Virus record (IMG/VR): IMGVR_UViG_3300042312_000318
Coordinates: 1 to 54,646 of that record
From: a virus
Taxonomy: Duplodnaviria > Caudoviricetes
DNA: 54,646 bases
Direction: 5' to 3' (one strand)
Position 1 is the stretch's first letter. Every line of letters begins with the position of its first letter. Positions 8,029 to 54,646 of the stretch are shown here, in pieces. The translations under genes and the position numbers were made by a program. The notes under the pieces were generated by a model. It ran no database searches and had not been told where the DNA came from. It worked only from the letters and a program-made list of their open reading frames with translations.

Positions 8029-8056
8029 CACTTCCACGCTACAAGGTAGGATTGCA

Positions 8057-10960: not shown

Positions 10961-11329
10961 GTGAGCGCGAGCGAGATCGATCAAGTCATCGCCGTTATCG
11001 GCATGCCGGCTCTGATCGGCCTAACGCGGGTCTACGGTGGGGACATGCTCCGGGTGCCGGTGTCGGTTCGCGATGAGCATCCGCTGTGCGTGGCGATCGG
11101 CGTCGATGCCGCGCGCAAGCTGTGCGAGGCCTTCCCCGACGTGGAGATCTACGTTCCCGCCGAGCGCACCGCGCTGATTCGTGCACGCAATGACGCCATC
11201 GTTACCGCGTACCTCGCCCGCGAAGCAATCAGTAAGATCGCGCGCGAAAACCGGATAAGCCCGCGGATGGTGCGAAAAATCCTCGGCGCTGCAGGGGTTC
11301 AGGGGCGCGCGGCAATGGTCCCACCGTGA
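10961..11329 (+). CDS. Mor/C-family late transcription activator
   Basis: YGG...VP, IYVP, RNDAI......I..IA....IS.R.VRKIL; directly before the lysis genes. Confidence 0.8.
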   Translation: MSASEIDQVIAVIGMPALIGLTRVYGGDMLRVPVSVRDEHPLCVAIGVDAARKLCEAFPDVEIYVPAERTALIRARNDAIVTAYLAREAISKIARENRISPRMVRKILGAAGVQGRAAMVPP

Positions 11330-11354
11330 CCGGGACCAGTTCTTACGCTACCTT
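11314..11354 (+). promoter_or_regulatory. Putative late promoter (AATGGTCCCACC plus -10-like TACCTT)
   Basis: Same 12-mer and spacing recur before the protease gene. Confidence 0.6.
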
Positions 11355-11379
11355 CCGTAGCACTCCAGAGGACGTTGAC

Positions 11380-12363
11380 ATGCGCGACAAGCTGACCGCT
11401 GCAACCCGCTGGCTACGCACCCATATCGAACTGACCGCCATCCTGCCGCTATTGCTTGCGGGAATGGCGGGCGCATGGTTCGTGACCTGGGCGCGCGGCC
11501 TTCCCGTCATCGAGATCGGCCCGATCCTGGTCGATTACCTCGTCGGCTTGGTGCCGACTGCCCTGCTCGGCTACCTCGCGTGGCGATGGAAAGCCGAGTA
11601 CTGGCACGACCTGAGCGCCGACGAAGAGCGCGAACTGCACTCGGCCGCGCGCGACGGCAACCGCAGCGCGCTGTGGCTGATCGTCAAGGACCGGCTCGAA
11701 TGGATCACGATCTTCGTGCTGCTGCTGATCGCCTTCGGCACGTTCTCGGGCGCGGCGAACGCTCAGGACGGCGCGCGCGACCTGATCGTGCGATGGGAGG
11801 TCGGCGGCAAGGGCCGATACGTCGCGGACCTGCAGCGGCCCATCTGGCCGGGCGGCGCCTCGGGCGTCACCTGGGGCATCGGCTACGACGGCGGTCACCA
11901 GCACCCGGACACGATCCGGCGCGACTGGGCCACGCACCCGGCCGCCCCGCGGCTGGCTACGACCGCGGGCTTCACCGGCACCGAGGCGCGCGCCATCCTG
12001 CCCCGCTACCGCGACATCATCGTCAGCTGGGCCGACGCAATCCGCGTGCTGGATTCCAGCAGCATCCCCGTCTACCGAGCCCGCGCGCGACAGGCCTACG
12101 GCCGCGCCTTCGACATGGCGCCGATCGGTGTGCAGGACGCGCTGACCTCCGAGGTCTACAACCGAGGTCCGGGGATGGCGGGCAGCCGGCGCGAAGAGCG
12201 CCGGGTCATCCGGGACGTATGCTTGCCCGCCCGGGATGTCGAGTGCGTTGCTCGGCAGCTGGAGCGCAGCTGCCGGGTTTGGGCCGGTACGCCCAATGGC
12301 CGCGGCCTATGTGGGCGCCGGCAGGACGAGGCGCGCGTCGCCCGAGCGGGAGGTGTTGCTTGA
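11380..12363 (+). CDS. Endolysin (lysozyme fold) with N-terminal three-TM region
   Basis: WEV...Y...PIWPGGASGVTWGIGYD and YNRG after three hydrophobic segments ending in AANA. Confidence 0.85.
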   Translation: MRDKLTAATRWLRTHIELTAILPLLLAGMAGAWFVTWARGLPVIEIGPILVDYLVGLVPTALLGYLAWRWKAEYWHDLSADEERELHSAARDGNRSALWLIVKDRLEWITIFVLLLIAFGTFSGAANAQDGARDLIVRWEVGGKGRYVADLQRPIWPGGASGVTWGIGYDGGHQHPDTIRRDWATHPAAPRLATTAGFTGTEARAILPRYRDIIVSWADAIRVLDSSSIPVYRARARQAYGRAFDMAPIGVQDALTSEVYNRGPGMAGSRREERRVIRDVCLPARDVECVARQLERSCRVWAGTPNGRGLCGRRQDEARVARAGGVA

Positions 12364-12644
12364 ACTCCAACGAGATTAAGCCCCGCGACCGCTTTTACAT
12401 CACACGCGATCGGGCGATTGCTCTCGGCTTCACCCATGAGGGCAGCCTGTACGGCGCGCCGTCGTGGATGATCCCAGAGGGCGACGATGCCGGCGTCGGC
12501 GTGCCGAAGTTTGTCCCGATGTTGGCCTGGGTCTTCCTGTGCGAGGCCGTCGCCGATTTGTTCACTTGGTTCATGACCGAAGACCAAGTGCTTAAGCTGC
12601 CGATCCATGTGCGCGGACGCATCGACGGAGCCATTCAGGCATGA
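12360..12644 (+). CDS. Hypothetical protein in the lysis cassette
   Basis: TTG start overlapping the endolysin stop. Confidence 0.55.
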   Translation: MNSNEIKPRDRFYITRDRAIALGFTHEGSLYGAPSWMIPEGDDAGVGVPKFVPMLAWVFLCEAVADLFTWFMTEDQVLKLPIHVRGRIDGAIQA

Positions 12645-13075
12645 TCATCCCCGCCCTCGCCACCCTCACCACCGGCCAGCGCATCGCCGGCGCCGCCCTG
12701 GGCATCGCTCTGTGGCTGCTGCCCGCCCTCGGCGTTTGGCTCTACATGGCCGCCAAGGCCGACGCGGCCGAGGAACTCGGCAAGGCCACGGCGCAGGCCG
12801 AGTGCGCCGAGCGCCAGACCGAGGCGCTGGCCACCGCGATCAAAGAGGCCCGAGAGGAATGGGTGAAGACCCAGAAGGGCATCGACGATCGCGCCGAGCG
12901 CGATGCGCGCGAGATCGCTCGCTTCCTCGCCGACGCCCGCCGTTCCGCCGCCAGAATCTCTAAGGACATGCAGGCCCATGCACAAGCGAATCCCCTATCT
13001 CCTGGCTGCCGCGCTGACCCTGAGCGTGTCCGCATGTGGAACCAATCCCGTCGTGGTGACCCCCCCGAAGGCTGA
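12641..13075 (+). CDS. i-spanin (Rz-like)
   Basis: N-terminal TM, coiled coil, C-terminal Cys. Confidence 0.75.
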   Translation: MIIPALATLTTGQRIAGAALGIALWLLPALGVWLYMAAKADAAEELGKATAQAECAERQTEALATAIKEAREEWVKTQKGIDDRAERDAREIARFLADARRSAARISKDMQAHAQANPLSPGCRADPERVRMWNQSRRGDPPEG

Positions 13076-13295
13076 GCCGCTCGACCTGCGATGCGACGCG
13101 GATCAAGCCGCCATGTGCTCCGGCGACTGTGCCGAGCTGCCCATATGGCAGCCCGACGCAGACGGAACGGGCAATTTCGACAGCCTCCTGCAGCTTGGGC
13201 CGCAGGATCGCGTCGTGACCGCCGACTGCCGCGCGAAGCTCCGAGCGTGCCAGGCGTGCCTAGATCGCGGCCGCAAGGCGGGGGTGATCCGGTGA
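12978..13295 (+). CDS. o-spanin lipoprotein (Rz1-like)
   Basis: Signal peptide with lipobox VSAC; overlaps the i-spanin 3' end. Confidence 0.75.
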   Translation: MHKRIPYLLAAALTLSVSACGTNPVVVTPPKAEPLDLRCDADQAAMCSGDCAELPIWQPDADGTGNFDSLLQLGPQDRVVTADCRAKLRACQACLDRGRKAGVIR

Positions 13296-13669
13296 CCGAC
13301 AGCGTCCTGCATCATCGCGTGGACCACCTTGAGCGGTCGCATCAATCAATCGCGAAGAGCTTGGAGGCCCTCGTCCGCCTTGAACAGCACCATGCAGACA
13401 CCCGCTCGGGGCTTGAGCGCGCATGGAAGGCCATCGAGACCTACCGCGAGCGCATGGGCGAGATCGAGGACCGCATCCCGAAAAAACTCGACGACCGCCT
13501 GCAGGCCATTGAGCGCGAGATGCCCAGCCTCAAGGAGACATCCCGCTGGGTCAAGCTCGGCGTGCTGGCCGTGGTCAGCATGGCCGGGACTCTCGTCTGG
13601 TCAACGATCACAGAGCAAAAGGAAGCGGCGCCCCAGTCCGTGCAGGCTGCGCCCGCCCCCAAACAGTGA
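13292..13669 (+). CDS. Coiled-coil protein with C-terminal TM
   Basis: GTGA coupling; WVKLGVLAVVSMAGTLVW. Confidence 0.6.
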   Translation: MTDSVLHHRVDHLERSHQSIAKSLEALVRLEQHHADTRSGLERAWKAIETYRERMGEIEDRIPKKLDDRLQAIEREMPSLKETSRWVKLGVLAVVSMAGTLVWSTITEQKEAAPQSVQAAPAPKQ

Positions 13670-20080: not shown

Positions 20081-20374
20081 TCAGTCCTCGTCGTCCTGGC
20101 GCACGGGGTTCGGCGGCAGCAGGCGCTTCCGCGGCACGGGCGGCACGTCGAACCCGAGCGCGCGACACATATCATCGAAGGTCTCGGCCTCGTCCGTCGG
20201 CAACCAAGTACGCACGCCGATCGCCAGCTTGCGCACGCGCTCCGGCGACGGCCCAGCATGTTCGCTCGGCGTGTGGCCGCTGGCCGGCCATCGCCAAGAC
20301 ACAGCGGGGCGCGGCAGGAACATCACCGCGGCGATGATCGCACCGAATACCGCGATATAGACGATCTCGTGCAT
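20081..20374 (-). CDS. Hypothetical protein with N-terminal TM
   Basis: AAGGA RBS; last gene of the inverted island. Confidence 0.55.
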   Translation of the reverse strand: MHEIVYIAVFGAIIAAVMFLPRPAVSWRWPASGHTPSEHAGPSPERVRKLAIGVRTWLPTDEAETFDDMCRALGFDVPPVPRKRLLPPNPVRQDDED

Positions 20375-23158: not shown

Positions 23159-23326
23159 TTATTTGGCGCCGGAGACGGCACCGATGACCAGCAGCAGCCA
23201 GAACGCATAAACGGCGAGGAAGCCGGCCAAGTCGCGGGCTGTAAAGCTGGGGTTCGGGTTGGCGCGGCGCGCGGCCTGGATCAGAGGCAGCAGCCAGCGC
23301 GGGCGGCGGATGGCCTTGGCGGTCAT
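23159..23326 (-). CDS. 55-aa single-TM protein
   Basis: Manual translation MTAKAIRRPRW...FLAVYAFWLLLVIGAVSGAK; ATGA coupling. Confidence 0.5.
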   Translation of the reverse strand: MTAKAIRRPRWLLPLIQAARRANPNPSFTARDLAGFLAVYAFWLLLVIGAVSGAK

Positions 23327-24328: not shown

Positions 24329-24365
24329 CGTGATCTCCTGCCCGGTCCTGCCGGGCACGATGGAT

Positions 24366-24395
24366 AAGCTACCGTCGGTAGCATGCCAATGTCAA
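24366..24395 (-). promoter_or_regulatory. Promoter TTGACA-18-TAGCTT with operator CTACCGTCGGTAG
   Basis: Consensus -35; 29-bp block nearly identical to 48443-48471. Confidence 0.75.
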
Positions 24396-24420
24396 CTATC
24401 CGCCGCAACCGTCCGTCGGA

Positions 24421-26060: not shown

Positions 26061-27029
26061 ATGGATATCTACCGCGACTATTTCACCCGCGAGGAGCTCG
26101 TCCGCGTCCTCGCGCAGACGCCCTACACCCCGGGACTCCTGGGCGAGCTGGGCCTGTTCGAGCCGGTCCCGCTCACCGGCACGACCTTCGCCGTCGAAGA
26201 AGAAACGAAGGACAGCGCACGCGTCCTGATCGCGCATCCGCGCGGCGCTCCGCGCGATCAGACGACTCTCGACAAGCGGAAGGTGCATAACTTCGCCGTG
26301 ACCGACGTCTACGGCGACCAGGGCAACGTGTTCGCGGACGAAGTGCTGGCCGCTCGCGGAGCCGGCACCACCGGCGCAAAGGAAGTCCTCACCGATCGCC
26401 GCAATCGTCTCGTGGCGAAGCTGCGCCGGGATATCGACCTGACGCACGAAAACCTGCGGATGCAGTGCATCCTGAGCCCGGCGAGCACCGAGTTCGGCGC
26501 CGCCGCGTCTTCGGTTGCGATCGCCGTGCAGACCGACACCACGAAGCTGCGCCAGGAGATCTTCAATAAGATCACCCTGCCGATGGAAGCCGCGCTGGAC
26601 GGCCTGTCGTTCGGCGAGCCGCTGGTGTTGTGTTCGAACGGCTACTGGGCCGATCTGATCGAAGCCAAGTCGATCAAGGATACCTATTTGAATTATCAGG
26701 CCGCGGCGGAACTGCGCGGTGCGGTGGCAGAAGAATTCGTGTTCGGCGGCGTGCGCTGGCGCCGTTACCGCGGCTCGGGCAACGTCAAGATCCCGGACAA
26801 CCAAGCGCGCGCGATCCCGACCGGCGTGAAGGGCACGTTCTGGCTGCCGATGGCCCCGAACGACACCATGGAATCGGTCGGCACCGGTGCGCTGGGCCAG
26901 CCGTACTACATGGGCAGCAAGCCGTTCGGCGACTCGCAGGGCACGAAGGGCTGGGAAGTTTCGATCCAGTCGCACGTTCGCGCCATCTGCGGCCGACCGG
27001 CCTGCATCATCCCGATCACCAAGTCGTAA
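26061..27029 (+). CDS. Major capsid protein (gpE-like)
   Basis: PGLLGELGLF, PRGAP, F.FGGV.W.RY; position. Confidence 0.85.
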   Translation: MDIYRDYFTREELVRVLAQTPYTPGLLGELGLFEPVPLTGTTFAVEEETKDSARVLIAHPRGAPRDQTTLDKRKVHNFAVTDVYGDQGNVFADEVLAARGAGTTGAKEVLTDRRNRLVAKLRRDIDLTHENLRMQCILSPASTEFGAAASSVAIAVQTDTTKLRQEIFNKITLPMEAALDGLSFGEPLVLCSNGYWADLIEAKSIKDTYLNYQAAAELRGAVAEEFVFGGVRWRRYRGSGNVKIPDNQARAIPTGVKGTFWLPMAPNDTMESVGTGALGQPYYMGSKPFGDSQGTKGWEVSIQSHVRAICGRPACIIPITKS

Positions 27030-38650: not shown

Positions 38651-38874
38651 CCGAGCCCGTCGTCCATCTTCGCCACGTCCGCATGATGCTGCGAAACGGC
38701 CGAAAGCCGCTATGCGCGGACGGCATCCTCGCGTGGTGCGAACGCCACGGCGTAGACATCGAACAGCTCGGCACGACTGGGATCCCAGGCGAGCGCGCGC
38801 TGGAGATCGGCGACGCTTTCTCGCTGCGCGCGCTTGAGTTTGCACGGCAGGAGGCGGCCGATGGGCAAGGGTAA
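38647..38874 (+). CDS. Small tail-module protein
   Basis: C..G..AW.ERHG.D.....GIP. Confidence 0.7.
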   Translation: MTEPVVHLRHVRMMLRNGRKPLCADGILAWCERHGVDIEQLGTTGIPGERALEIGDAFSLRALEFARQEAADGQG

Positions 38875-41383
38875 GAAATTCGTTTCGGGCTACTGGTACA
38901 AGCTGGGCATGCACCTCGGCATTTGCCACGGGCCAATCGACGAGATTAGCGAGATTCGCATTGGTGGGCGCATGGCTTGGGCCGGCTCGGTCACGACCAG
39001 CACGCAAATCGTCATTGATGCACTCAATCTCTTCGGCGGCAAAAAGCGCGAGGGCGGCGTGCAGGGCACGCTCGACGTGATGATGGGCGCCGCCGATCAG
39101 GCGCCGAACAGCTACCTCGCAACCGCGCAGGGTGCGGGCTCTCTGCAGCCTGCGTACCGTGGAATTCTGGGCCTTGTCTGGCGAGGCGGCATCGTCTCAG
39201 CGAACAATCCCTACGTCAAGCCGTGGTCGTTTCGCTGCAAGCGCATCACGGCCGGATGGGATGGTGCGGTGTGGTATCCGGCGAAGGCGGCCGTCGATGT
39301 CTCCGAGGTCGGCACCGGCGCGCTATTCGCAGCCAACCCCGCCCACATCATTTACGAGTGCCTGACAAATTCGGAGTGGGGGCTGGGCTATCCGGCCGGC
39401 ACCATCGATACCGTGTCGTTCACGTCGGCGGCCGACACCTTCCACGCGGAAGCCTTCGGCCTGTGTATACAGTGGTCGCGCCAGGAGAGCATCCAGAACT
39501 TTATACAGTTGGTGTGCGATCACGCGGGCGCCGCGTTAAGCCAAGATGTCCGCACGGGGCTCTGGCGGTTGCGCGCGATCCGCGACGACTACGACCTCGA
39601 AGAACTGCCGGTGTTCAGCGAGGAAAACGGCACGATCATGACTATGGAGAGCTTCGAGCGTGCGAGCCCGAGCGAGACGATCAATGAGCTGACAATCAAG
39701 TTTAGCGACATCCTGCTGGCTAAAAACGGTGCGGTGACCGTCCATCATCTGGCGAATATCACCTCGCAAGGCTACGTCGTCGCGCAGACGCAGGAATACC
39801 CGGGGATTCCTACGCACAAGATCGCCGCGCGCATCGCGGAGCGCGACATCCGCACGTTCGGCTCGACGATCGCCCGCGTGCGGTTTTACGCCACGCGCGC
39901 GGCTTACGGCCTGCTGCCGGGCGACGTGATCCGCTTCTCGTGGCCCAGGCTTGGCATCCAATCCATGGTCTTGCGCATCGGCAAGATCAACTACGGCACC
40001 CTGACCGAGGGGAGAATTGAGATTGAGGCGGTCGAAGACTCGTTCGGCCTGCCGCTGAATAGCTACCTTCAGCCGCCACCGCTCGGCTGGCAACCGCCCA
40101 ACACGACCCCGTCGCCGGCCGAGCACTACACCGCCTTTGAGATCCCTTACCGTGAGATCGCCGCGACCGAGGGCGCGGCCAATGCCGCGGCGCTGCCCAG
40201 TACTTCCGGCTACATTGCGGGCGTTGCACGAAAGCCGCCGGTGCTCAGCTTTTCTTTCGAGTTGCGCACAAAGATCGGGGCCGCGGCCTACGAGGAGCAG
40301 GGAGAGGGGCCATGGACGCCGACGGCAACGCTGGCCGCCAACCTATCGCGCACCGCGACCACGGTGCAACTGTCCAACGCGATCGATCTAGACCAAGTAG
40401 ACACGGGAACCGCCTGCCTGATCGGAACGGAGATCGTGCGAATCGATGCGGTCAATACGGGCACGAACACCATCACCGTCGGGCGCGGTTGCGCGGATAC
40501 CGTTCCGCAGGCCTGGGCGACCGGCACGCGCGTGTGGTTCTACGACAGCTGGGCGGTCCCGGATCAGACCGAGTACGTGCTGGGCGATGTCGTCGATGCG
40601 AAATTTGTGACGATCACCGGCACCGGCGAGCTGGCAGAGGGCTCGGCACCGACTTCAACGGTAACTCTCAATCGCCGGGCCGCGCGGCCGTACCCGCCGG
40701 GCCTTTTCCGCATCAATGGCGCAGCCTATCCGGCCACGGCATACGCGCGCCTTGCGCTGACTTGGGCGCACCGCGATCGGCTCGTACAGCAGGATGACTT
40801 GATCGACCAGGGCGCGGTTAGCATTGGCCCCGAGGCCGGCACGACCTACACCGTTCGAATCTACCAGCAGCCCTCGACGCTGCTGCACACGCAGACCGGC
40901 ATCACCGGCACGGCCTTGACCTACGAGCACGAGCTGAATGCAGACCTGCGCGTCGAGGTTGAGGCGGTTCGCGACGGCCTCGCAAGCTGGCAGATACAGA
41001 GCCACGTAATCACCTGCACGGGTGGAACCGTGGTCGTCAACGGCTCATTCGCCGCGGACACGGACTGGACCAAGGGCACGAGATGGACGATCGCGGCCGG
41101 CGTCGCCACGAAGGCCGCAGGCACCGCCAGCGACCTATCGCAGGCGGTCGCATTCGTCGCCGGCGGTGTCTACCTCGTCGAGTTCACGGTGAGCGGCTAC
41201 AGCGCGGGCACGGTGCTTGCGCGCTTCGTCGGCGGTGCGCCGGTCAGCGGGGGCGCGCGCAGCGCGAACGGGACTTACACCCAGGAGCTCACCGCGGCCA
41301 GCGGCAACAATGCCCTGCACTTCGTGGCCGACTCAGCATTTGCAGGGAGCATCGACGCGGTGCGCGTGCGTCGCGTCGCGTGA
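38861..41383 (+). CDS. Tail tip/host-specificity protein with C-terminal CBM-like domain
   Basis: NPAHIIYECLT, LPGDV, RGCADTVP; VVNGSF..DTDW. Confidence 0.8.
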   Translation: MGKGKKFVSGYWYKLGMHLGICHGPIDEISEIRIGGRMAWAGSVTTSTQIVIDALNLFGGKKREGGVQGTLDVMMGAADQAPNSYLATAQGAGSLQPAYRGILGLVWRGGIVSANNPYVKPWSFRCKRITAGWDGAVWYPAKAAVDVSEVGTGALFAANPAHIIYECLTNSEWGLGYPAGTIDTVSFTSAADTFHAEAFGLCIQWSRQESIQNFIQLVCDHAGAALSQDVRTGLWRLRAIRDDYDLEELPVFSEENGTIMTMESFERASPSETINELTIKFSDILLAKNGAVTVHHLANITSQGYVVAQTQEYPGIPTHKIAARIAERDIRTFGSTIARVRFYATRAAYGLLPGDVIRFSWPRLGIQSMVLRIGKINYGTLTEGRIEIEAVEDSFGLPLNSYLQPPPLGWQPPNTTPSPAEHYTAFEIPYREIAATEGAANAAALPSTSGYIAGVARKPPVLSFSFELRTKIGAAAYEEQGEGPWTPTATLAANLSRTATTVQLSNAIDLDQVDTGTACLIGTEIVRIDAVNTGTNTITVGRGCADTVPQAWATGTRVWFYDSWAVPDQTEYVLGDVVDAKFVTITGTGELAEGSAPTSTVTLNRRAARPYPPGLFRINGAAYPATAYARLALTWAHRDRLVQQDDLIDQGAVSIGPEAGTTYTVRIYQQPSTLLHTQTGITGTALTYEHELNADLRVEVEAVRDGLASWQIQSHVITCTGGTVVVNGSFAADTDWTKGTRWTIAAGVATKAAGTASDLSQAVAFVAGGVYLVEFTVSGYSAGTVLARFVGGAPVSGGARSANGTYTQELTAASGNNALHFVADSAFAGSIDAVRVRRVA

Positions 41384-41705
41384 GGCCAAGAACGGCGAAC
41401 CGCGCGACGTGCCGCTATCGCCCCGGGCGCAGGAGGCCCTGCGGGCGATTCCCCGGCGCCTTGACGGTCTCGTGGTCGGGTTGACGGGCGACGGCCTCAC
41501 GCAGGCCTGGGCGCGCGCGTGTGCCGCCGCCGGCGTCACTGGGCTGCGCCTGCACGACGTGAGGCATGAGGCGATCAGCCGGCTATTCGAGCGCGGCTGG
41601 AGCGTGTCCGAGGTCGCGGCAGTCAGCGGTCACCGCACATGGACCCAACTCCGGCGCTACACGCAACTGCGCGCCGAGTCGCTGGCGCGCAAGCTGGCCG
41701 CTTGA
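41380..41705 (+). pseudogene. C-terminal remnant of a tyrosine recombinase/integrase
   Basis: KNG..RDVPL, HDVRHEAISRLFE, SGH.....L.RY; N-terminal domains and first catalytic Arg absent. Confidence 0.85.
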
Positions 41706-41771
41706 CTGTCGGCGATGCCGCGGGCATATTGATCCGGCGCCGCCCCCTTCGGCGTGTCCCGTGCAGTACCG

Positions 41772-41805
41772 CGCCCCCGGCTCCCCACCGGGGGCGTTTT
41801 CATTT
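41772..41805 (+). terminator. Rho-independent terminator
   Basis: CGCCCCCGG..CCGGGGGCG then TTTTCATTT. Confidence 0.75.
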
Positions 41806-41988
41806 GACCCCACGCTTGACGGCGATAGGATGCTGGCGGAATACTTGGCGCGCGGTAAGCCCCCAAGAATCGGCGAAGCGTCTGCAGCGCGAGGTCGGGA
41901 GATACGGGGCGCCTCGGTCGAAACGCGGGTCGCTCCCGCGCAGCCTAGCCCGACGCGGTCGCCCGTTGCGAAATACGGTCGAGAATTC

Positions 41989-42064
41989 AGCGAGTGTGGA
42001 GCACCGGCAGCTTGCCAGGCTCATAACCTGGAGGGACGGGGTTCGATTCCCTGCCTCGCTACCA
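41989..42064 (+). tRNA. tRNA with CAT anticodon (Met or Ile2)
   Basis: CCAGG-CTCATAA-CCTGG, GGTTCGATTCC, ACCA end; one extra nt in the acceptor stem. Confidence 0.85.
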
Positions 42065-42148
42065 AACGTGATGCGTCTGCGGCTTGAAACCGTTGACTGC
42101 CGGGGATGGGTAGGTGCCCGCCGGCGACGCACCTTGGCGCATTACTGA

Positions 42149-42178
42149 GCCCCGGGCACCCTCGGGGCGTTTTCATTT
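42149..42178 (+). terminator. Rho-independent terminator
   Basis: GCCCCG..CGGGGC then GTTTTCATTT. Confidence 0.7.
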
Positions 42179-42694
42179 CGGCCGGCGCCACCATCGGATC
42201 ACCGCCCAGCCGGTCACCGCGCCGCCCAGGTGCGCAAATTGCGCGACGCCCGGCTGCAGGGTCGCGACGATCAGCAGCAGCGCGATCGCCGCGAAGACCA
42301 GCCGGCGCAGTGGCCGAACCGGATGCAACGTGCCGTAGGCGATCAGCAGGCCGAACGCGCCACCGGACGCGCCGACGACCGGGTGAGTCGAGAGCGCGGC
42401 ATGCGCGAGGCCCCCGCCAGCCACGCAGGCGAGGAAATACTGCGCGAGGCGACGCGCTCCGATCGCGCGCTCCAGCGGCGCGCCGAGGGCGGCAATCGTC
42501 AACAGGTTCGGCGCCAAGTGTGCGAGGTTGACGTGCAGGAGGGCGTAGGTCAGCAGTTGCCACGGCATAAAGCCGGAGCCGGTCTCGCCTAGCGGCCACA
42601 GCATCAGCCGCTCGGTCGGCAGCGCGCGCTGCGCGGTAAAGGCCACCGCGATGACGATCAGCATCGTCGTAGTGGCTCTGCCCGCGGCTCTCAA
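42173..42694 (-). CDS. Rhomboid-family intramembrane serine protease
   Basis: PWQLLTYALLH...HL..N, GASG (catalytic Ser), AHLGG (catalytic His); start is TTG 42694 or ATG 42664. Confidence 0.9.
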   Translation of the reverse strand: MRAAGRATTTMLIVIAVAFTAQRALPTERLMLWPLGETGSGFMPWQLLTYALLHVNLAHLAPNLLTIAALGAPLERAIGARRLAQYFLACVAGGGLAHAALSTHPVVGASGGAFGLLIAYGTLHPVRPLRRLVFAAIALLLIVATLQPGVAQFAHLGGAVTGWAVIRWWRRPK

Positions 42695-43809
42695 ACGATC
42701 ACCGTGACGCGCTCGGATGCGCGCGTGATCCCGGTATACAGGTGCTTCTCGCGGTCTTCGCGGAACACCTGCGACTCGTCGAACAGGATCACGTCGTTCC
42801 ACTGCGAGCCCTGCGACTTATGCACGGTCAGCGCGTGGCCAAACGTGAACTGATCCGTCCCCCTGAGGTCGTCCCATTCCAGCTTCTTTTCTTCGCCGGT
42901 GAAAAACTCCTCGCGCACGACCACGTCGGTCTGCGGTATGGTTAGGTCGTCGATCGAATTTACTCGCATCTCAATGCGCGCGCCATTGGCCTTGACCTGC
43001 GTCGCCTCCCACAGCGAGCCATTCAGGACACCGTTTAGGCGGTTGTTCCGCAGACACACCAGACGCTCGCCCTTGACGGGGTGATGCGGCGCCGCGGTGC
43101 CAGCGTGGCCGCGCAGATGGCGAATCCGCGCGTTGTACGTCTGCCGCGTCATGTTCCGGCCGCACAGCAGTTGGTCGGCGCCCAGCACCAGCTCGCGCAT
43201 CTCGTCGCGGCCGATGCTGTCGCGCCGGATCACTCGGCTTTTGCCGTAGTCGCCGACTTGCAGTCCCCGCCCCTCGCGCACGTCCATGCTCATGCGGATG
43301 ATCGGATTCTCTGCCGCCTGCCGGTGCACCTCGGTCAGCATGACATCGGGGAAAGAGTTTATGAAATACCCTTCGCCCTTCACCGGCGGCAGCTGCGCAG
43401 GGTCGCCCAGCACCAGCACCCGCTTACGGAACGACAGCAGATCGGTAGCCAGATCCTCGCCGACCATCGACACCTCGTCGATGATAAGCAGGTCTGCGAA
43501 CGCGGCCGCGCTCTCGCGGTTCAGTACAAACTTCGTTTTCCTGGTCTCGGGGTCTTCGCGCGGCGTGTAGATCAGGCTGTGGATTGTTGACGCGCCCTCG
43601 CAACCCTTCGTGCGCAGAACCTGGGCGGCCTTTCCGGTGAAGCACGCATAGAGCACCGTACCCCTGACGCCGGCGGCGAGTTCCTTCGCGAGCGTTGTTT
43701 TGCCGGTCCCGGCATATCCGAACAGTCGGAACACCTGCGGCCCTTTCTTATTGGCCAGCCAGTCGCGCACGGCCTTGATTGCTTCCTCCTGTTGCGGGCT
43801 CCAAGTCAT
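42691..43809 (-). CDS. RecD/Dda-like SF1 helicase
   Basis: GYAGTGKT, IIDEVSM, GDPAQLPPV, TVHKSQGS, LYTGITRA. Confidence 0.92.
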   Translation of the reverse strand: MTWSPQQEEAIKAVRDWLANKKGPQVFRLFGYAGTGKTTLAKELAAGVRGTVLYACFTGKAAQVLRTKGCEGASTIHSLIYTPREDPETRKTKFVLNRESAAAFADLLIIDEVSMVGEDLATDLLSFRKRVLVLGDPAQLPPVKGEGYFINSFPDVMLTEVHRQAAENPIIRMSMDVREGRGLQVGDYGKSRVIRRDSIGRDEMRELVLGADQLLCGRNMTRQTYNARIRHLRGHAGTAAPHHPVKGERLVCLRNNRLNGVLNGSLWEATQVKANGARIEMRVNSIDDLTIPQTDVVVREEFFTGEEKKLEWDDLRGTDQFTFGHALTVHKSQGSQWNDVILFDESQVFREDREKHLYTGITRASERVTVIV

Positions 43810-43976
43810 GGGCTTCGGTTCTCCGAGGCGACATGCGTCACGCCGACGAGCGAAACGCGATCAAGCATCGCCTCCCATAGCCCGCGCTCTGCGTCGTTCG
43901 GCGCCAGTCGCAAACCTTCACGTATCGCAGCTTCGGCGGCGTCGCAGGCCTTGATGTACTGATTCGTCGCGCTCAT
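43806..43976 (-). CDS. 56-aa hypothetical protein
   Basis: ATGA-coupled on both sides (manual translation). Confidence 0.5.
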   Translation of the reverse strand: MSATNQYIKACDAAEAAIREGLRLAPNDAERGLWEAMLDRVSLVGVTHVASENRSP

Positions 43977-45475
43977 CGCTCCCCCTTGCCGGCTAGATGC
44001 CGGGCGTCGTCCACGATCGCGGCCAGAGGCTCAGTCGCGCGCGTCTCGTCCAAGCCGAGAGCCTCCAGCATGCGTTCGCTGCGACCCGTGGTGAGTTGGC
44101 CAAACAGGTCGGAAACAAAACGCCAGCGATTGGCATTGGCTAGGGTCTGCGCATCCGCTGGCGGCGCTCCGGCGTAGAGCGGAACGTCATGACCTCGGTC
44201 TCCAGCACAGACGCCGGCGGCTGCTCCTGTCTTTCCAGAGTTGGCACGCAAAAAGTCAAATTCCCGGCGACTCACCCACGCCACCGCCTCCCCGCTGCTA
44301 GCGGTCAAGATCACCCCGCCGATACGCTCCTTAATCCCTTCGATCGCGGCCTCGGCGTCGTCAAGGTACAAGCGATACCAGCGGGAATTCCCTTGGCGCA
44401 CCTGGCTAATCGCTTTTGCGGCGGACAGCGCTAGATCGGATTGTTCCACCGCCCCGCTGCCGGCGGGAGCGGCCATGGCGAGCTTTTGTTCCATCGCCAT
44501 GAAGGTCACGACCAAAGATTTCAGCAGGTCTTCGGGGCCGCCCCCTTCGCAGACGCGAATCGCATGCGGGCTGCGGTCAAGCAAGCAACGCGCATTCGCT
44601 TCCCAGCCATTGTCATCCGCCCCGCCCTCGGCGGCCTTGGGCTGCGCAATGTCTGAGAATCGCCGATCCACTGAGCGCTGCCACTTCGGCTTTGAATAGC
44701 CCATGCGCATAGCCCAATGTTCGGGGATAGAGCGCTTTCCGGTTAGAACACCAGAGACGTAGGCAGGGCTGACCTTGTACTCTTTCGCAAGTTCGGCCTG
44801 AGAGCCAAGAATCTTTGCATACGCCTTAAGATCGGCGATGACATCGGCGTCCGAATACTCTCGATCATCCACCCCCTCCTTGGCGTTGGCCTCTGGCCGC
44901 TCGCTTGCGTCGATGCCGGCGTATCCTAGCTTCCTGAGCTCGGTCTCGGCTCGCTGCGCGCGACGCTTCCATTCAAGCGGGTCTTCGCGTGCTCCCGCGT
45001 AGGCGTCGCGCATGTCCGCACCGGCGGCTTCGGGCTTGGGCTGCGCATGCCGGAACTGCAAAGATTCGTCACGATTATTTTCGCGAAAGTATTGGTCGGT
45101 GCATTGTTGCCACTGGGTCCACGCACCATCGCCGCTACACCATCGCCGCACTTCGTATGTTGCATCAGCCCCCGCGGTTTCGGGCTGCGCGTGCCAAGCC
45201 CCGCACGAACATGGGACTCCGCCATTCGGGGCATCACAGGGTTCCGTCGCTCCGTTGCTGTCCGGGTTGTGGGCGACCGCCTCCGCCTTGGCCTCGGGCT
45301 GCGTTCCGTATTGGCATACTTCTTCCGTTTCGCAATCGCACTCGGGGTATCGGTCTCGGCCATCGCGCGGCGCACCGCAGGCCATCTTGCTGTCCAAATG
45401 CTGCGCCGGATTCTCCGGGCACGGATGTTGCAAAGACCTATCACCGCCCGGGCATGTGCAGTTGTTTGTGGTCAT
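43973..45475 (-). CDS. Mosaic hypothetical protein with an internal Xre HTH
   Basis: SQAELAKEYKVSPAYVS.VL.GKR; repeated QP linkers. Confidence 0.65.
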   Translation of the reverse strand: MTTNNCTCPGGDRSLQHPCPENPAQHLDSKMACGAPRDGRDRYPECDCETEEVCQYGTQPEAKAEAVAHNPDSNGATEPCDAPNGGVPCSCGAWHAQPETAGADATYEVRRWCSGDGAWTQWQQCTDQYFRENNRDESLQFRHAQPKPEAAGADMRDAYAGAREDPLEWKRRAQRAETELRKLGYAGIDASERPEANAKEGVDDREYSDADVIADLKAYAKILGSQAELAKEYKVSPAYVSGVLTGKRSIPEHWAMRMGYSKPKWQRSVDRRFSDIAQPKAAEGGADDNGWEANARCLLDRSPHAIRVCEGGGPEDLLKSLVVTFMAMEQKLAMAAPAGSGAVEQSDLALSAAKAISQVRQGNSRWYRLYLDDAEAAIEGIKERIGGVILTASSGEAVAWVSRREFDFLRANSGKTGAAAGVCAGDRGHDVPLYAGAPPADAQTLANANRWRFVSDLFGQLTTGRSERMLEALGLDETRATEPLAAIVDDARHLAGKGER

Positions 45476-45632
45476 TGTCTCTTACCCTTGCGTTTAACCG
45501 GCCGGCTAGCGGCGCTGTGCCATCGAGTGATGGCGGTGTTTGCGATTACAAACTGCACACGAAACCAAAAAAAATAACGAGCTGCTCTGCGCCAAGCCGC
45601 ACGCGCCATCTGTGGTTTCTTGCTTCGAAGTC

Positions 45633-46766
45633 TCATGAATCACCGCCTGTCGAATTGTCCTTGGCGTGCCGACCATCGACGTTACGCAGGATGTCCGCCC
45701 GACCGCGAAGGGAATCGGCGACCCCAGCGGCGAAGTTCCCGGCGCGCGTGTCTCGCTCGATCAGCTCAGAGGCGATGCGGTCTAAAAAGTCTGGAAGAGA
45801 TTCCGGGCCGGGCTGCGGCTCCGCGTTACTTAGCGGCGCATCGGCCGCAGTAAGTAACGGCTGCGGCGAGGCGCGCACAGGCTGCCCGTGGACAGCGCCC
45901 GGCGGCTTGGAGTCATGGCAGCGGGGGCACGTTGCCCGTCTGTCGTGATTCACAGGGCACAAGTTGAGCCAGACCTCCGGCGCATCCTGTGCAACAGCCG
46001 ATGAATCCTTGGCAGCTGCGGGCTGCGGCGCGGCGGCGAGCATAAGGAACGCCTGAAGTGCCTTCCATTCGTGGTTTCTGTGGCCGCTTTCGACGTAGGT
46101 GCGATACAGGCCGCTGTGCTTGCGCTTTTCGTACTCGACGCGCTCTTTGGCAGCCTCATAGCTGAGGTACGCATCGACAAACTGCCACCTTGCCCTGTAC
46201 TCGATGCGCTCAAATCGCTCGGGTAGTGCCCAGCCGCGGCCTGATCGTCGCTCCAGCCTTGCGGCCTTACGCTCCTCGACTTCCTCGCCGTCTTCAACCC
46301 ATATGAAACCATCGCCCTCGCCGTCTTGCACGCGATAGATGCGATCCTCGCGCTGCACGGTGTAGATCGGGTCCGCCGTGAAGTGATCATTCTGCATTCG
46401 ATCTGCGATCAAGCGCCGACCGATTTCGATCAGCCCCTCCGGCACCGCCACAGCCGCAGCAGCGCGGGCGTCGCCGTAGGTGCGGAGTGAGTCGCGGCTG
46501 TAAAGGTAAGTAATTTCGGGGTATTGATCGAGGCCATGCGGGTCTGCCCCTTGGGCAAACAAGTTGAAGTCTTCTTCCTCGCTATCATAGAACCCGAACG
46601 GTTCCGGCAGCCCCACCTCGCCACCCGGCGCGGGCTGCGCGGCGAGGGCGTCCTCGATCTCTCGCGCAAGCTCCAACGGTTCATTGCTGCCGTCGTCGTC
46701 GTATTTCGCGCCCTCGTCTTGCAGGTACGGGATCGCCTTTTTCAGCAGTTCGCGCAGGTCAGTCAT
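45633..46766 (-). CDS. Mosaic hypothetical protein (Ead/Ea22-like style)
   Basis: TADPIY.VQ...YVESG.RN.E module; AAPQP linkers. Confidence 0.65.
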   Translation of the reverse strand: MTDLRELLKKAIPYLQDEGAKYDDDGSNEPLELAREIEDALAAQPAPGGEVGLPEPFGFYDSEEEDFNLFAQGADPHGLDQYPEITYLYSRDSLRTYGDARAAAAVAVPEGLIEIGRRLIADRMQNDHFTADPIYTVQREDRIYRVQDGEGDGFIWVEDGEEVEERKAARLERRSGRGWALPERFERIEYRARWQFVDAYLSYEAAKERVEYEKRKHSGLYRTYVESGHRNHEWKALQAFLMLAAAPQPAAAKDSSAVAQDAPEVWLNLCPVNHDRRATCPRCHDSKPPGAVHGQPVRASPQPLLTAADAPLSNAEPQPGPESLPDFLDRIASELIERDTRAGNFAAGVADSLRGRADILRNVDGRHAKDNSTGGDS

Positions 46767-47130
46767 GGTGAGGTTCCTTCGAAAGTTCCCTCGTCAATCG
46801 GTCAATCTCGTCCAACTTCCGCTGCCTCTCGGCCTTGGATGCCGCGTCCTTCCGTTCTTGCGCGCACTCTCGCGCTGCGGCGACAGGGTCATCTGCCGTC
46901 CAAACTTTCAGAGGGATGCGTGTCTCATGCTCGTAGGGACCACCGCTGCGGTGGTGCGTGTGCCGGATCGTGAAGAACCCAGCAGGCCACCTTTCGATGC
47001 TGTCGATGCAGTAGACGCCGCCGAAATGCTCTGCAATCGGTAGGATCGCTGCGCGCATTGCGTCATGTGCGCCTTCCGTGATCTCGACCATGCGCTCCCA
47101 GCGTTCGACTTTCTTGATGTGGTTAGCCAT
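46759..47130 (-). CDS. Hypothetical protein
   Basis: Overlap-coupled. Confidence 0.6.
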   Translation of the reverse strand: MANHIKKVERWERMVEITEGAHDAMRAAILPIAEHFGGVYCIDSIERWPAGFFTIRHTHHRSGGPYEHETRIPLKVWTADDPVAAARECAQERKDAASKAERQRKLDEIDRLTRELSKEPHHD

Positions 47131-47530
47131 GGCTTTCGGCCTCCGTGCTGGTCGGGTTCAGGGCGGCGGTGAGTGCGGCTTGGGCATCGCCCTTGTGCAT
47201 TTGCCACTGCACACAAAAAGTGCCGTCTGGATTCTTGGACCTGGTCATGGTGCCGGAGTAGTAGACGGGGGCGTCTGGATTCCAGCCGTTTGCTATGCAA
47301 ATTCCGCGAGCACCACGCTCCACCCTCGCCTCATCCACCTGCGGGCGCAACTGGCGGGCAAAGTCTGTGAGTTCTTGGGCGGTGAATGCGTACAACGGCG
47401 CGCCGAGATTGATTTTTCCCTCGGGATAAAAGATGCCGACTTTTGCGGCCAACGCCTCTACGCTGGTCTGGGCTGTGGGCTCGTCGGCCTTGCTTTCAGC
47501 GGCGATCGTGGTGAGGCGTTCGATGTGCAT
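47123..47530 (-). CDS. Hypothetical protein
   Basis: GGAG RBS. Confidence 0.6.
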   Translation of the reverse strand: MHIERLTTIAAESKADEPTAQTSVEALAAKVGIFYPEGKINLGAPLYAFTAQELTDFARQLRPQVDEARVERGARGICIANGWNPDAPVYYSGTMTRSKNPDGTFCVQWQMHKGDAQAALTAALNPTSTEAESHG

Positions 47531-47582
47531 TGTGTTCTCCGGGATGGGGTGCCCCGGCGGGAAACGGGGCGGCGGGGATGTG

Positions 47583-47669
47583 TGGTGGACGCGGCCGGGC
47601 TACGTAGTTACCGGCTCCGGCGTTCGCGTGCGCGCAACGCCGGCTGCATTGGACGTTCGCACCGCGCCC
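47583..47669 (-). ncRNA. tRNA-like RNA with CCA end and G3:U70/A73 acceptor
   Basis: GGGCGCG/CGCGTCC-A-CCA plus three hairpins; non-canonical loops. Confidence 0.55.
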
Positions 47670-47675
47670 GTGGGA

Positions 47676-48413
47676 TCAGTCGCGGCTGGCGATGCGGCGT
47701 TCGCGGCGGGCCTGCTGCGCGTCGAACGCCGCGCGAACCTGCGGATACAGCGGGTGCACCGGCAGCACCTGGATGCGGTCCTTCTCGAAATAGTCGGTCA
47801 TGCTGTCGCTTTCGTTCTTGACCTCAAAGCAGGTGCGCACCAGCGCTGAAAATCCGGTGTATTCGTGGCTGTAGATCGTGATCGTGTCGGCGGCCATTTC
47901 GGCCGGGACGTTCGTGTAGCCGCCCATCGAGTAATGCGCCTTCTGCAGCTTCTCGCCCTTGGCATCCTTGATGCCGTTCCAGAAGAAGACCGGCGCGGTC
48001 TTGATCACGACGCTGCGCTGCGCATCGGCCAGGTCGTGCTTTGCCTTCTCGCGGGCCAGCAGCTCGTCGGCTTCGCGCTTCGCGGCAGTTTTGCGGGCAA
48101 CTTGAATCAGCGCGTTGCAATGCACGCGATCGACGAGGCGGTAGCCGATACCGATGCCGCCGAAGCTGGACTGCTGCACGGTGGCGCGGCGGCCGTCGAA
48201 CAGGATCACTTCAACGTGGCAGTCGTTTGAGCGGATAACGCGGCGGGCGCCGCCGAGGGTCGTTTGCGCCGGCTCCGGGTTCGGCGTACCGTGCACTGCG
48301 ACGATCAAGCCGTCGCAGTCCTCGCCGAAGAGGCCTCCATGGAAGCGGACACGGCGGCCGACGGTGATAGCCTCGGCGGCCGCTTCGATCTCGGGCAGTT
48401 GGACGATGGTCAT
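47676..48413 (-). CDS. Hypothetical phage protein
   Basis: N.SDSMTDYFE.DRI...P.HPLY; first gene after the promoter. Confidence 0.7.
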   Translation of the reverse strand: MTIVQLPEIEAAAEAITVGRRVRFHGGLFGEDCDGLIVAVHGTPNPEPAQTTLGGARRVIRSNDCHVEVILFDGRRATVQQSSFGGIGIGYRLVDRVHCNALIQVARKTAAKREADELLAREKAKHDLADAQRSVVIKTAPVFFWNGIKDAKGEKLQKAHYSMGGYTNVPAEMAADTITIYSHEYTGFSALVRTCFEVKNESDSMTDYFEKDRIQVLPVHPLYPQVRAAFDAQQARRERRIASRD

Positions 48414-48440
48414 GGCGTGGTCTCGGGTGGCGATGTGGTA

Positions 48441-48470
48441 ATGCTACCGTCGGTGGCATGCCAATGTCAA
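48441..48470 (-). promoter_or_regulatory. Promoter TTGACA-18-TAGCAT with operator variant CTACCGTCGGTGG
   Basis: Near-duplicate of 24368-24396. Confidence 0.75.
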
Positions 48471-48501
48471 CCAGTCAGCACGCCGTTCGTCGGGTCGGCC
48501 C

Positions 48502-48545: not shown

Positions 48546-48617
48546 CGCTCGGTAGCTCAATGGTGGAGTACCTGTCCACGGAACAGATGGTTGCAGGTTC
48601 GAGTCCTGCCCTAGCGA
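48546..48617 (+). tRNA. Atypical tRNA, anticodon ACG (Arg-like)
   Basis: TAGCTCAATGG D arm, GCAGGTTCGAGTCCTGC T arm; loop CCACGGA; no encoded CCA. Confidence 0.6.
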
Positions 48618-48624
48618 TAGCGTC

Positions 48625-48700
48625 AGCCTGAATAGCTAAATGGCGAAGCGCCGGCCCAAAAAGCCGGAGGATGTAGGTTCGAGTCCTTCTCAGGTTGCCA
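48625..48700 (+). tRNA. Atypical tRNA, anticodon loop CCAAAAA (AAA; Trp-like body)
   Basis: AGCCTGA/TCAGGTT-GCCA acceptor, CCGGC/GCCGG stem, GGTTCGAGTCC. Confidence 0.6.
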
Positions 48701-48708
48701 GCTTCACC

Positions 48709-48794
48709 GGATCGCGTTACCGGATGGGCGCCGGGCCTGACTGTAAATCAGGCGAGCATGCTCTCGCATCGTTCGACTCGATGGCGATCCACCA
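48709..48794 (+). tRNA. tRNA-Tyr(GTA)
   Basis: GGATCGC/GCGATCC-ACCA, CCTGA-CTGTAAA-TCAGG, long variable arm. Confidence 0.8.
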
Positions 48795-53410: not shown

Positions 53411-54646
53411 TCACGCTGCGATCCGCCCCGCATTAACGACGGGATCAAGATTCGCCTCAGCGATCGCTCGCAGCGGCGGCGGGCTTACGCTGTTGCCCAC
53501 CATCTTTACCTGCGCTGCTTTCGGCAAACGGCGGCCGTCGGCGGTCCGGTCGATGATGTATTCGGGCGGGAACCCTTGGGCGCGGTACAGTTCGTGCGGT
53601 TCCAGCATGCGCAGGCCGATATCGACGATCACGTAGGGCACGCCGCGGATGTGCACCGTGACCAGGGCCAAACGGTCCTTGGTGGTGATGGTGGCGAGCG
53701 GTTCGCGCAGGTCGCCGTGCTGACCGCCTTCGCCGTAATAGCGCATCAGGAATGCCGCCACGCGCAGCGCGCCGGCCTCGGCTTCCGGGCTCAGCTGGCA
53801 CTCGACGACCGCATGGTGCGTGCCGCCGGCAAGGATTGAACCGACCGGATCGCGCGCGGCGGCGCCCGGGCTGTGCTGCTGCATCGGTTGCATGTGCGCC
53901 GCCACAAGCCGCTGCAGGCCGCCTTGTGCGCAGATGGTCGGCTGTGGGTTGCGTAGGTCGCTGCCGGCGCCGGTGTAGTTGCCGCCGTTGGCTTGTTCAA
54001 GGAATGCGGTGGTCACGCCGAAGCGCGTCGCGCCGGCTAACACGGTCGGCAGCGGGTCACGTGCATCAATGCCAACGACGTTCTGCGCCATCGCGCACAG
54101 GTGCGCGGAGACCAAGCCCATCGCATGCGCGGCGCCCGCCGGCCGCGCCGCACCGGCACCGCTGGTAATGGTGGGCAGGGGTTCGTCTGCGGGCACGCCG
54201 CCGCTCTCGCCGCGGAATTTGACCAAGTGCGGGGCGCATAAGGCGAACGACCCACCACCGGCGGGAATAGTGCCGATCGGCGCGGCGGCATCGTGTGCGC
54301 CGCTTCCTCGGCGCGCGGTCGCGCCCTGGCCTTCGCCGTAAGCGGTCTGCACCAGCACGGGCGCGCACACGGCCGCATCAGCCTTGGCGGTGATGGTCTG
54401 CAGAGGGCCGGAGGCGGGCCGCTCTAAGGTGTCGCCTATGCGGCCGCCGACGCCCACGATAAAGGGCTCGGCCGCGCCGAGCACGAACCGATGCACGCCG
54501 CGCGCGATTCGGCGCATGGTCTTCTCAGCCAGCGGCCGGGGCCGGTCGAAAATCGTGCGGCATGGGATCGACCAATCAATGCAGTCGGCGGCGGACACAG
54601 CCGGCAGCAGGCCAACTTGACGATTTGCGCAAGTTGCCGATTTTCG
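53411..54646 (-). CDS. C5 cytosine DNA methyltransferase, C-terminal part
   Basis: AADCIDWS, LAEKTMRRIARG, DIGLRML.P.EL.RAQGFP, MVGNSV. Confidence 0.9.
   Translation of the reverse strand, partial: RKSATCANRQVGLLPAVSAADCIDWSIPCRTIFDRPRPLAEKTMRRIARGVHRFVLGAAEPFIVGVGGRIGDTLERPASGPLQTITAKADAAVCAPVLVQTAYGEGQGATARRGSGAHDAAAPIGTIPAGGGSFALCAPHLVKFRGESGGVPADEPLPTITSGAGAARPAGAAHAMGLVSAHLCAMAQNVVGIDARDPLPTVLAGATRFGVTTAFLEQANGGNYTGAGSDLRNPQPTICAQGGLQRLVAAHMQPMQQHSPGAAARDPVGSILAGGTHHAVVECQLSPEAEAGALRVAAFLMRYYGEGGQHGDLREPLATITTKDRLALVTVHIRGVPYVIVDIGLRMLEPHELYRAQGFPPEYIIDRTADGRRLPKAAQVKMVGNSVSPPPLRAIAEANLDPVVNAGRIAA

Follow-up and report, generated by a model that had tools for sequence, protein, structure and literature searches.

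The window analysed here is a stretch of 54,646 bp that makes up the whole of IMG/VR virus record IMGVR_UViG_3300042312_000318 (Duplodnaviria; Caudoviricetes). On its minus strand it carries a gene for a rhomboid, a protein of the family of intramembrane serine proteases. The product retains the full set of catalytic residues, is markedly shorter than its cellular relatives and is likely to derive from the chromosomal rhomboids of Lysobacteraceae. The features of the locus are listed below, with coordinates counted from the first base of the window.

42173..42694, minus strand: rhomboid intramembrane serine protease gene, 173 amino acids (aa) from the TTG at 42694
42365-42367, minus strand: codon of the catalytic Ser110
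42230-42232, minus strand: codon of the catalytic His155
42518-42520, minus strand: codon of His59 (oxyanion side)
42506-42508, minus strand: codon of Asn63 (oxyanion side)
42691..43809, minus strand: RecD/PIF1-like superfamily 1 helicase (Pfam AAA_30, expectation value (E) 4.7e-25; UvrD_C_2, E 1.2e-14)
42149..42168, plus strand: GC-rich hairpin and then GTTTTCATTT (terminator scan), 5 nucleotides (nt) past the rhomboid stop
41989..42064, plus strand: tRNA-Met (CAT), convergent with the rhomboid gene (ARAGORN; Rfam RF00005, 42.2 bits)
41384-41705, plus strand: 5'-truncated tyrosine integrase remnant (PF00589 match at 41484..41675, profile positions 106-170 of 172)

The open frame extends over 42173..42802 on the minus strand (209 codons counted from a GTG). 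An alternative start, the ATG at 42664, would give 163 aa, and this is the form on the record (P0001). We favour the TTG, without regarding the case as decisive, because only this start supplies residues ahead of the first transmembrane (TM) segment that match the N-termini of Escherichia coli GlpG and of the cellular relatives. The ten residues that it adds include two Arg, whereas the ATG form would start straight in TM1. A GGTGA lies 4 nt upstream of the TTG, and the TTG itself (42692-42694) shares two bases with the TGA stop of the helicase (42691-42693), giving a TTGA overlap. A preliminary description of the locus, made from the sequence alone, had presented the rhomboid as translationally coupled to the helicase. 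The overlap can be seen, but it is a real stop/start overlap only if the TTG is the start.

Membership of the rhomboid family, which is S54 in MEROPS, is clear. The protein matches the Pfam profile PF01694 with E 1.2e-22 and 81.1 bits against a cut-off of 22.6, over residues 43-166 and profile positions 3-137 of 143. Used as a phmmer query against PDB sequences, it retrieves E. coli GlpG at E 2e-8. We checked the catalytic columns in two alignments, containing 12 and 37 cellular homologues. Ser110, in G108-A-S110-G-G (the GxSG motif at the top of TM4), stands in a column that is invariant in 38/38 sequences, and a helix of the structural model starts at the following residue, 111. His155, in F-A-H155-L-G-G, is also invariant and lies in TM6, inside the model helix 151-170. 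The dyad that the preliminary description had called intact (GASG and AHLGG) is therefore confirmed in both alignments. His59 and Asn63 of the HxxxN motif in TM2 are invariant as well and align with the matching motif in TM2 of GlpG; W45-Q46 and H54 are further positions that do not vary among the phage protein and the 37 homologues.

An AlphaFold2 model built on the 37-homologue alignment has a mean predicted local distance difference test score (pLDDT) of 73 and a predicted template modelling score (pTM) of 0.72. It contains helices at residues 6-24, 57-78, 80-101, 111-123, 128-144 and 151-170, together with a short loop-1 helix (44-50). Foldseek aligns it with E. coli GlpG structures at a TM-score (template modelling score) of 0.72-0.77 over about 175-185 columns. 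In that search 31 chains were found at E <= 0.001; GlpG was best, the inactive iRhoms scored lower and Der1 much lower. The model indicates that the phage rhomboid has kept the six-TM core fold. With sequence and model taken together, we consider the phage protein to be probably an active rhomboid protease.

The compactness noted in the preliminary description is borne out by a comparison with the best 119 non-self homologues, which have 199-227 aa; with its 173 aa, the phage copy falls short of them by about 45 aa. Missing are ~9 aa from the stretch joining TM3 to TM4, about 13+4 aa from that joining TM4 to TM5 (including an insert with PPIPMKAR) and a basic C-terminal tail of ~17 residues. 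All of these deletions are in-frame and confined to loops and tail, and six predicted helices are left. The loss of loops and tail suggests a stripped-down, and possibly less regulated, enzyme.

The substitutions are not evenly spread. Among the columns that are invariant in the 37 cellular homologues the phage copy retains 39 of 48, compared with 32 of the 80 variable columns (Fisher's exact test, p 7e-6); it also retains 16/35 of the columns conserved at >=90%. When 80 genomes are considered, 27 of the 32 columns that are >=97% conserved are kept, the losses being M69A, F70L, A94G, G142I and H152Q. The departures fall in TM2, TM5 and the start of TM6, the region that controls the entry of substrates in GlpG. 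As the changes have avoided the conserved core despite a long branch, their pattern argues against free decay. With no polymorphism and no close relative to compare, the placement of changes is the sole constraint test that can be applied here.

A word-based search gave 552 proteins at E <= 0.001 among 1,778 candidates. Apart from the self match (100% identity, on 11 contigs), the next best protein is 48% identical, and the named matches are nearly all from Lysobacteraceae (Luteimonas, Lysobacter, Stenotrophomonas, Thermomonas). HMMER over 1.84 billion representative proteins returned 8,105 matches at E <= 0.001 and 467 at E <= 1e-10. At E <= 1e-30 only the protein itself is found, and by this measure the phage rhomboid is a singleton lineage.

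At least 582 species genomes contain relatives. The preliminary description had proposed a phylogeny as a check, and one was built from the best 80 of these relatives with four virus-labelled rows. In the first tree the phage rhomboid falls in a 38-row clade (33 Lysobacterales) with a support of 99 in the Shimodaira-Hasegawa-like approximate likelihood ratio test (SH-aLRT). When four long or odd rows are left out (L165, L043, L004, L166), it falls in a 36-row clade (31 Lysobacteraceae, 5 unlabelled), again with SH-aLRT 99. The trees are quick searches with no bootstrap and the phage row is long, so that a position inside the Lysobacteraceae chromosomal clade is likely while the exact sister is not fixed. 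We interpret the gene as one that was captured long ago from a host of Lysobacteraceae type and has changed fast since then. Such an origin also suggests the host group of the phage, and agrees with a G+C content of 62-70%.

The record that carries the gene is a phage genome. CheckV gives it a completeness of 100%, and IMG/VR classes it as 'linear'. It has a terminal repeat of 126 nt (bases 1-126 = 54518-54643) with one indel three bases from the end, which probably explains the 'linear' label. A DNA methyltransferase gene crosses the record ends, leaving on the left and entering on the right at consecutive profile positions. Because of this gene and the repeat, the genome can be read as circular or terminally redundant. 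Inside the same junction-spanning gene (1-225 and 54518-54646) there is also a 99-nt tandem duplication whose copies are 83% identical. The gene map is lambdoid in style, as indicated by the following features.

7524-8015, minus strand: repressor-like gene
7994-8350, plus strand: Cro/YdaS-like gene
8695-8766, plus strand: 24-nt tandem repeat in three perfect copies, within the O-like replication gene; probably origin iterons
26061-27029: major capsid protein (Phage_cap_E match from residue 12; no hydrophobic segment)
38834-41383: tail protein

The Cro/YdaS-like gene is followed by an O-like replication protein, a P-like loader, RusA and a late activator. The structural genes (terminase, portal, protease, E-type capsid protein, tape measure and tail genes) continue up to 41383. 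Leftward genes encode RecT, a RecE-like exonuclease, SSB, an exonuclease, three methyltransferases and NinB. About 12 kilobases (kb) separate the rhomboid gene from the record ends, and it is flanked by phage genes, the tail module on one side and the helicase on the other.

The same arrangement is found in independent assemblies. In three other runs of lake-water metagenomes, contigs that cover 41400-43003, 41400-42848 and 41400-42685 join the tail end, the tRNA, the rhomboid and the helicase with 0 differences, and over contigs from four runs there are likewise 0 differences and no polymorphism. Phage sequence was listed for 24 runs: 15 contain at least half of the sampled words, 23 are lake water metagenomes, five are flagged as possible sources, and none of the 24 is an RNA run. 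The identical bridging contigs exclude a chimeric assembly, and the phage is one that recurs in fresh water and is clonal. None of 185,579 species genomes (one genome each) contains an exact 40-mer of the rhomboid gene, and 41000-46800 has no near match at the DNA level among 50,697 phage records. The terminase and tail protein reach only <=42% identity with those of isolated phages. The gene is thus phage-borne and not host contamination, which the preliminary description had mentioned as a concern.

The neighbourhood between the tail genes and the rhomboid has some features of its own. The integrase remnant is the C-terminal third only, starts right after the tail gene stop and is the sole integrase match in the whole record (one match in a profile search). 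The phage may formerly have integrated and since lost its integrase, with the repressor-like gene still present. The hairpin at 42149-42168 has the orientation expected of a terminator of the convergent tRNA-Met and is assigned to it on that basis; it could also be a bidirectional end of the rhomboid unit. A near-twin GC-rich hairpin, also followed by GTTTTCATTT, occurs at 41771-41797 (plus strand), and the two hairpins bracket the tRNA-Met. There are promoter-like sites at 41702-41845. The tRNA-Met looks like a self-contained inserted cassette.

Capture at a tRNA-Met attachment site by imprecise excision, with the integrase remnant, the tRNA-Met and the rhomboid moving as one block, was considered and rejected. 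Among the first 56 of 80 chromosomal rhomboid loci none has a tRNA-Met within 3 kb (four have Val, Asp, Leu and Leu tRNAs), and the rhomboid gene is on the opposite strand to both the integrase remnant and the tRNA-Met.

The rhomboid gene is the last of a leftward unit of ~6 kb. Its upstream genes and the putative control element are as follows.

48436..48471, minus strand: promoter/operator element of 36 nt (TTGACA, an 18-nt spacer with the palindrome GCCACCGACGGTAGC, TAGCAT)
43806..48413, minus strand: upstream genes of the unit, at 47676-48413, 47123-47530, 46759-47130, 45633-46766, 43973-45475 (weak helix-turn-helix match) and 43806-43976

The PHROG matches of these genes are only to families of unknown function or to repressor-like families, and no relatives of the 377-aa operon protein were found. 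A tRNA cluster on the plus strand (48546-48794) interrupts the leftward genes, so that the unit cannot be one transcript from the immunity region and most likely starts upstream of 48413. ARAGORN identifies three genes in the cluster, Arg-ACG, Phe with an unusual AAA anticodon and Tyr-GTA; the first two are above the threshold of the Rfam tRNA model and the third is below it.

The element at 48436-48471 precedes the first gene of the unit by ~30 nt and is 89% identical to 24361-24396. Both copies, on the minus strand, consist of TTGACA, an 18-nt spacer and a -10-like hexamer (we read the promoter hexamers from the sequence ourselves); the spacer contains the palindrome GCTACCG-N-CGGTAGC, which in the 48.4-kb copy has one mismatch. 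The palindrome GCTACCGNCGGTRGC has 13 matches in the window (both strands, <=2 mismatches) against 1.44 expected. Among them are a variant that falls exactly on the repressor-like gene's start (8015-8029) and another at 7289-7303, near the start of RecT. We infer that the immunity region may share one repressor with two units read leftward, one from 24358 to 20081 and the other from 48413 to 42173. The operator-controlled operon of the preliminary description is supported in this way at the level of the DNA sequence. The operator common to the immunity region and the leftward units would make the rhomboid an early lytic gene and not a lysogenic-conversion gene, and early expression seems to us fairly probable.

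The family, fold, catalytic residues, phage location, host-clade origin and promoter/operator sequence given by these tools lead us to infer activity, timing of expression and a host substrate in the following way. A phage lineage would have captured a rhomboid from a Lysobacteraceae-type chromosome and kept it as an accessory gene. This gene would stay silent while repressed and be expressed early in the lytic cycle, from a putative promoter with a strong -35 hexamer, across which lies a palindromic operator with further copies at two other control regions of the genome; translation of the gene would be coupled to that of the helicase upstream. Once the protein is in the inner membrane, its Ser110-His155 dyad, with His59 and Asn63 on the oxyanion side, would cut the TM segment of a client.

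Since the enzyme appears to descend from a host rhomboid, the most likely clients would be inner-membrane proteins of the host, of the sort on which its own ~215-aa rhomboid acts. Whether the client is a host protein is, in our estimate, evenly balanced. Taken as a whole, the reading that we lean towards, by a small margin of confidence, is that of a minimal, active rhomboid of host origin that is expressed early and cuts host inner-membrane proteins. A more specific version can be offered only tentatively: the phage, using its early repressor-controlled promoter, would wield the minimal host rhomboid as a membrane weapon against a host inner-membrane protein. It might be aimed at a defence effector anchored in the membrane, at a component of DNA entry or of the receptor, which would give superinfection exclusion, or at a Tat or quality-control client. 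Defence effectors and receptor components had also been suggested as possible substrates in the preliminary description.

A number of observations weigh against our reading. The structural model is only moderately confident, its pLDDT dropping to 51-66 in residues 31-60 and 141-150. The protein has lost two loops and the tail, which could mean relaxed selection or lost activity, and 9/48 family-invariant residues are altered, including His152Gln adjoining TM6 and Gly142Ile in TM5. The end branch of the rhomboid is 2.21 long compared with a median of 0.31, about 7 times the median, and neither protein library holds a protein above about 50% identity. As the contigs are all identical, selection within the phage population is not measurable. 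A crude hydropathy scan finds no TM protein encoded in the rhomboid's unit. Finally, the gene is sporadic: of the 377 helicase relatives in IMG/VR 80 were compared, and their loci contain no rhomboid within 6 kb (0/80) and do not have neighbouring genes in common; PF01694 is found in 0/4 whole helicase-sharing records. The preliminary description had named sporadic presence with no selection as something that would refute it. Presence is sporadic indeed, whereas the one possible test of constraint, described above, indicates that the invariant columns have been preferentially kept.

An explanation that we think unlikely, though it is the best of those that compete with a host client, is that the rhomboid processes the phage's own membrane proteins. 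It might set the timing of lysis by freeing a membrane-anchored lysis protein or making it inactive, or mature a small early membrane protein. The hydropathy scan reveals several phage TM proteins. The best candidates are a 345-aa protein (11326-12363, plus strand) with approximately three N-terminal hydrophobic segments, encoded just after the late activator; the adjoining single-TM proteins at 12641-13075 and 13091-13669; and small single-pass proteins at 20081-20374 (N-terminal TM) and 23159-23326 (C-terminal TM). The last two lie in the other unit with the same promoter/operator and so would be co-expressed with the rhomboid. However, the rhomboid gene is far from both the putative lysis region and the head genes, the capsid protein at 26061-27029 is devoid of a hydrophobic leader, the helicase-sharing phages do without a rhomboid, and the enzyme appears to descend from a host housekeeping gene. 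The 345-aa protein was called a multi-TM endolysin in the preliminary description, which named it as a possible substrate; it has no match in Pfam or PHROGs, and hence no recognisable lysin domain, and that label is unverified.

We find it harder still to believe that the gene is a decaying passenger, a host gene of no further use, acquired in a variable region that separates the tail genes from the end of the early unit. The very long branch, the lost loops and C-terminal tail and the altered invariant residues are all compatible with decay, as are the singleton status of the lineage and its absence from all of the helicase-sharing loci examined. The gene also adjoins another relic, the truncated integrase. 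In addition, open frames are cheap at a G+C content of 66%, and antisense open reading frames of 120-192 aa overlap the rhomboid gene. Decay would not, however, be expected to spare the conserved core (39/48 against 32/80) and leave the catalytic set whole, nor to confine in-frame deletions to loops and tail while the six predicted helices still superpose on GlpG. The start of the gene also overlaps the helicase stop, as in a working operon.

It is quite improbable that the protein is a pseudoprotease which binds clients in the manner of the iRhoms or Derlins, for example to sequester a host factor. Alteration of TM5 and of the L4/L5 gate region (the loop deletion, Gly142Ile and His152Gln) would fit such a role, and inactive rhomboids are found among the structural matches, although at lower scores. 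To our knowledge, known pseudoproteases lack the catalytic Ser or His, whereas here Ser, His and the oxyanion His and Asn are all kept. Host contamination or a chimeric assembly, with the gene lying in chromosome that flanks a prophage, is a source of rhomboids in other 'viral' records (L003 and Ralstonia YO382_2, see below) and might be suspected from the integrase remnant and tRNA beside the gene, but it can hardly apply where a tail protein stands on one side and a helicase and early genes on the other, the record ends overlap, independent contigs bridge the region, identity to any chromosomal rhomboid is only about 50%, no species genome holds the 40-mer and 0/56 chromosomal rhomboid loci have a tRNA-Met nearby.

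Rhomboids in phages are rare, as the preliminary description had supposed, but they are not new. A tblastn search of the 50,697 phage records gave 10 matching records, none covering 80% of the query. Four are of Stenotrophomonas phages (DLP5 twice, DLP3 and Summit) and are annotated as 'rhomboid membrane protein' or 'rhomboid protease'. The rest are two uncultured phages of ~640 kb, two faecal contigs, a weak match in a Staphylococcus phage and the Ralstonia 'phage' YO382_2. Two of the ten records, DLP5 and YO382_2, were looked at in detail. In DLP5 the rhomboid is internal to the phage and keeps both Ser (GASAG) and His (PHLVG). In YO382_2 (L166, 3605-4468), a record marked UNVERIFIED_ORG, the rhomboid lies beside a LysR gene at the record end and is host flank.

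A scan of IMG/VR with the rhomboid alignment, which was limited to its patterns and is not a census, matched 29 stretches, two of which are relatives. One (L003, 7866-8486) encodes a host-type rhomboid of 206 aa after an integrase and before a host gene; it groups with Burkholderiales in the tree and is again host flank. The other (L004, 7962-8693, record G005) encodes a 243-aa rhomboid with intact GASG and AHLGG, which follows closely on a sigma-factor-like gene and is itself followed by a large acidic protein, on a low-G+C fragment of 51.6 kb (CheckV, 7% complete). This is a separate case of a phage rhomboid. Counts of phage rhomboids taken from databases need checks of provirus boundaries.

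PHROG also includes a rhomboid-like family with no assigned function, phrog_16931. The match to it is weak (E 3.1e-8, residues 10-163, profile positions 33-206 of 217), so the relation is a distant one only. In the literature, the DLP5 announcement places the rhomboid gene among 'moron genes', and the DLP3 paper describes gp93 (175 aa) as a rhomboid-family serine protease. In the Tiamat preprint rhomboids serve only as an analogy. Full-text literature searches retrieved no functional study of any phage rhomboid. What is new here is an unusually compact phage rhomboid of host origin; phage rhomboids as such were already known by annotation.

What the analysis provides is a well-supported annotation for a rare accessory gene of an orphan freshwater phage, and not a new kind of system. 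Bacterial rhomboids are widespread and few have known substrates. Phage genes are pressed to do one useful thing, and an early, host-derived mini-rhomboid could reveal an important client of the host enzyme. If it were in fact used as a membrane weapon, it would give a virus-encoded intramembrane protease a defined role in infection for the first time. A naturally minimised rhomboid, with 173 aa and short gate loops, should also be of use for structure-function work.

The protein can be compared with several known systems. The best-known bacterial rhomboid with a defined substrate is AarA of Providencia stuartii, which reportedly cleaves TatA. The action of AarA on TatA is a model for the clipping of a small single-pass protein with its N-terminus outside. 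AarA has a seventh TM helix, whereas the model of the phage rhomboid has six, and there is no evidence that links the phage enzyme to TatA.

The Stenotrophomonas phages DLP5, DLP3 and Summit (Delepquintavirus) also carry rhomboids and also belong to Lysobacteraceae hosts. They are phages of ~96 kb in which the rhomboid is found among genes for modification of the cell envelope, and their proteins are 29-38% identical to ours over a partial match. Independent capture and common descent are not separable here, because the branch of DLP5 (9.3) makes its placement in the tree unreliable.

E. coli GlpG (PDB 2IC8, 2O7L, 3ZMJ) has the same six-TM fold, the same Ser/His dyad and the same His and Asn in TM2, at 26-31% identity across the best-scoring GlpG matches. 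The phage protein differs in having no N-terminal cytoplasmic domain, only ~10 residues before TM1 and shorter loops. In loop 1, WQ is found in the phage protein and in all 37 cellular relatives, and not the WR of GlpG. Judged by these sequence differences, the phage rhomboid is not an orthologue of GlpG.

The closest relatives are the chromosomal rhomboids of Lysobacteraceae (Luteimonas, Lysobacter, Stenotrophomonas, Xanthomonas and other genera), with 42-48% identity by BLASTP and 48-55% in the alignment. They have all of the catalytic motifs and the loop-1 WQ in common with the phage copy, but differ in their full-length architecture and in their gene neighbourhood. In 17 Lysobacteraceae loci (L005-L054), a PhoU-like gene and a PHO4-type phosphate transporter gene lie upstream. 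A gene for a small MGMT-type DNA-binding protein is directly upstream on the same strand in at least 9/17, and an M13 peptidase gene is convergent downstream in 12/17. These neighbours give no clue to a substrate. The phage copy, in contrast, follows a helicase gene, and its sequence is best described as that of a derived offshoot of the Lysobacteraceae clade and not of an orthologue in place.

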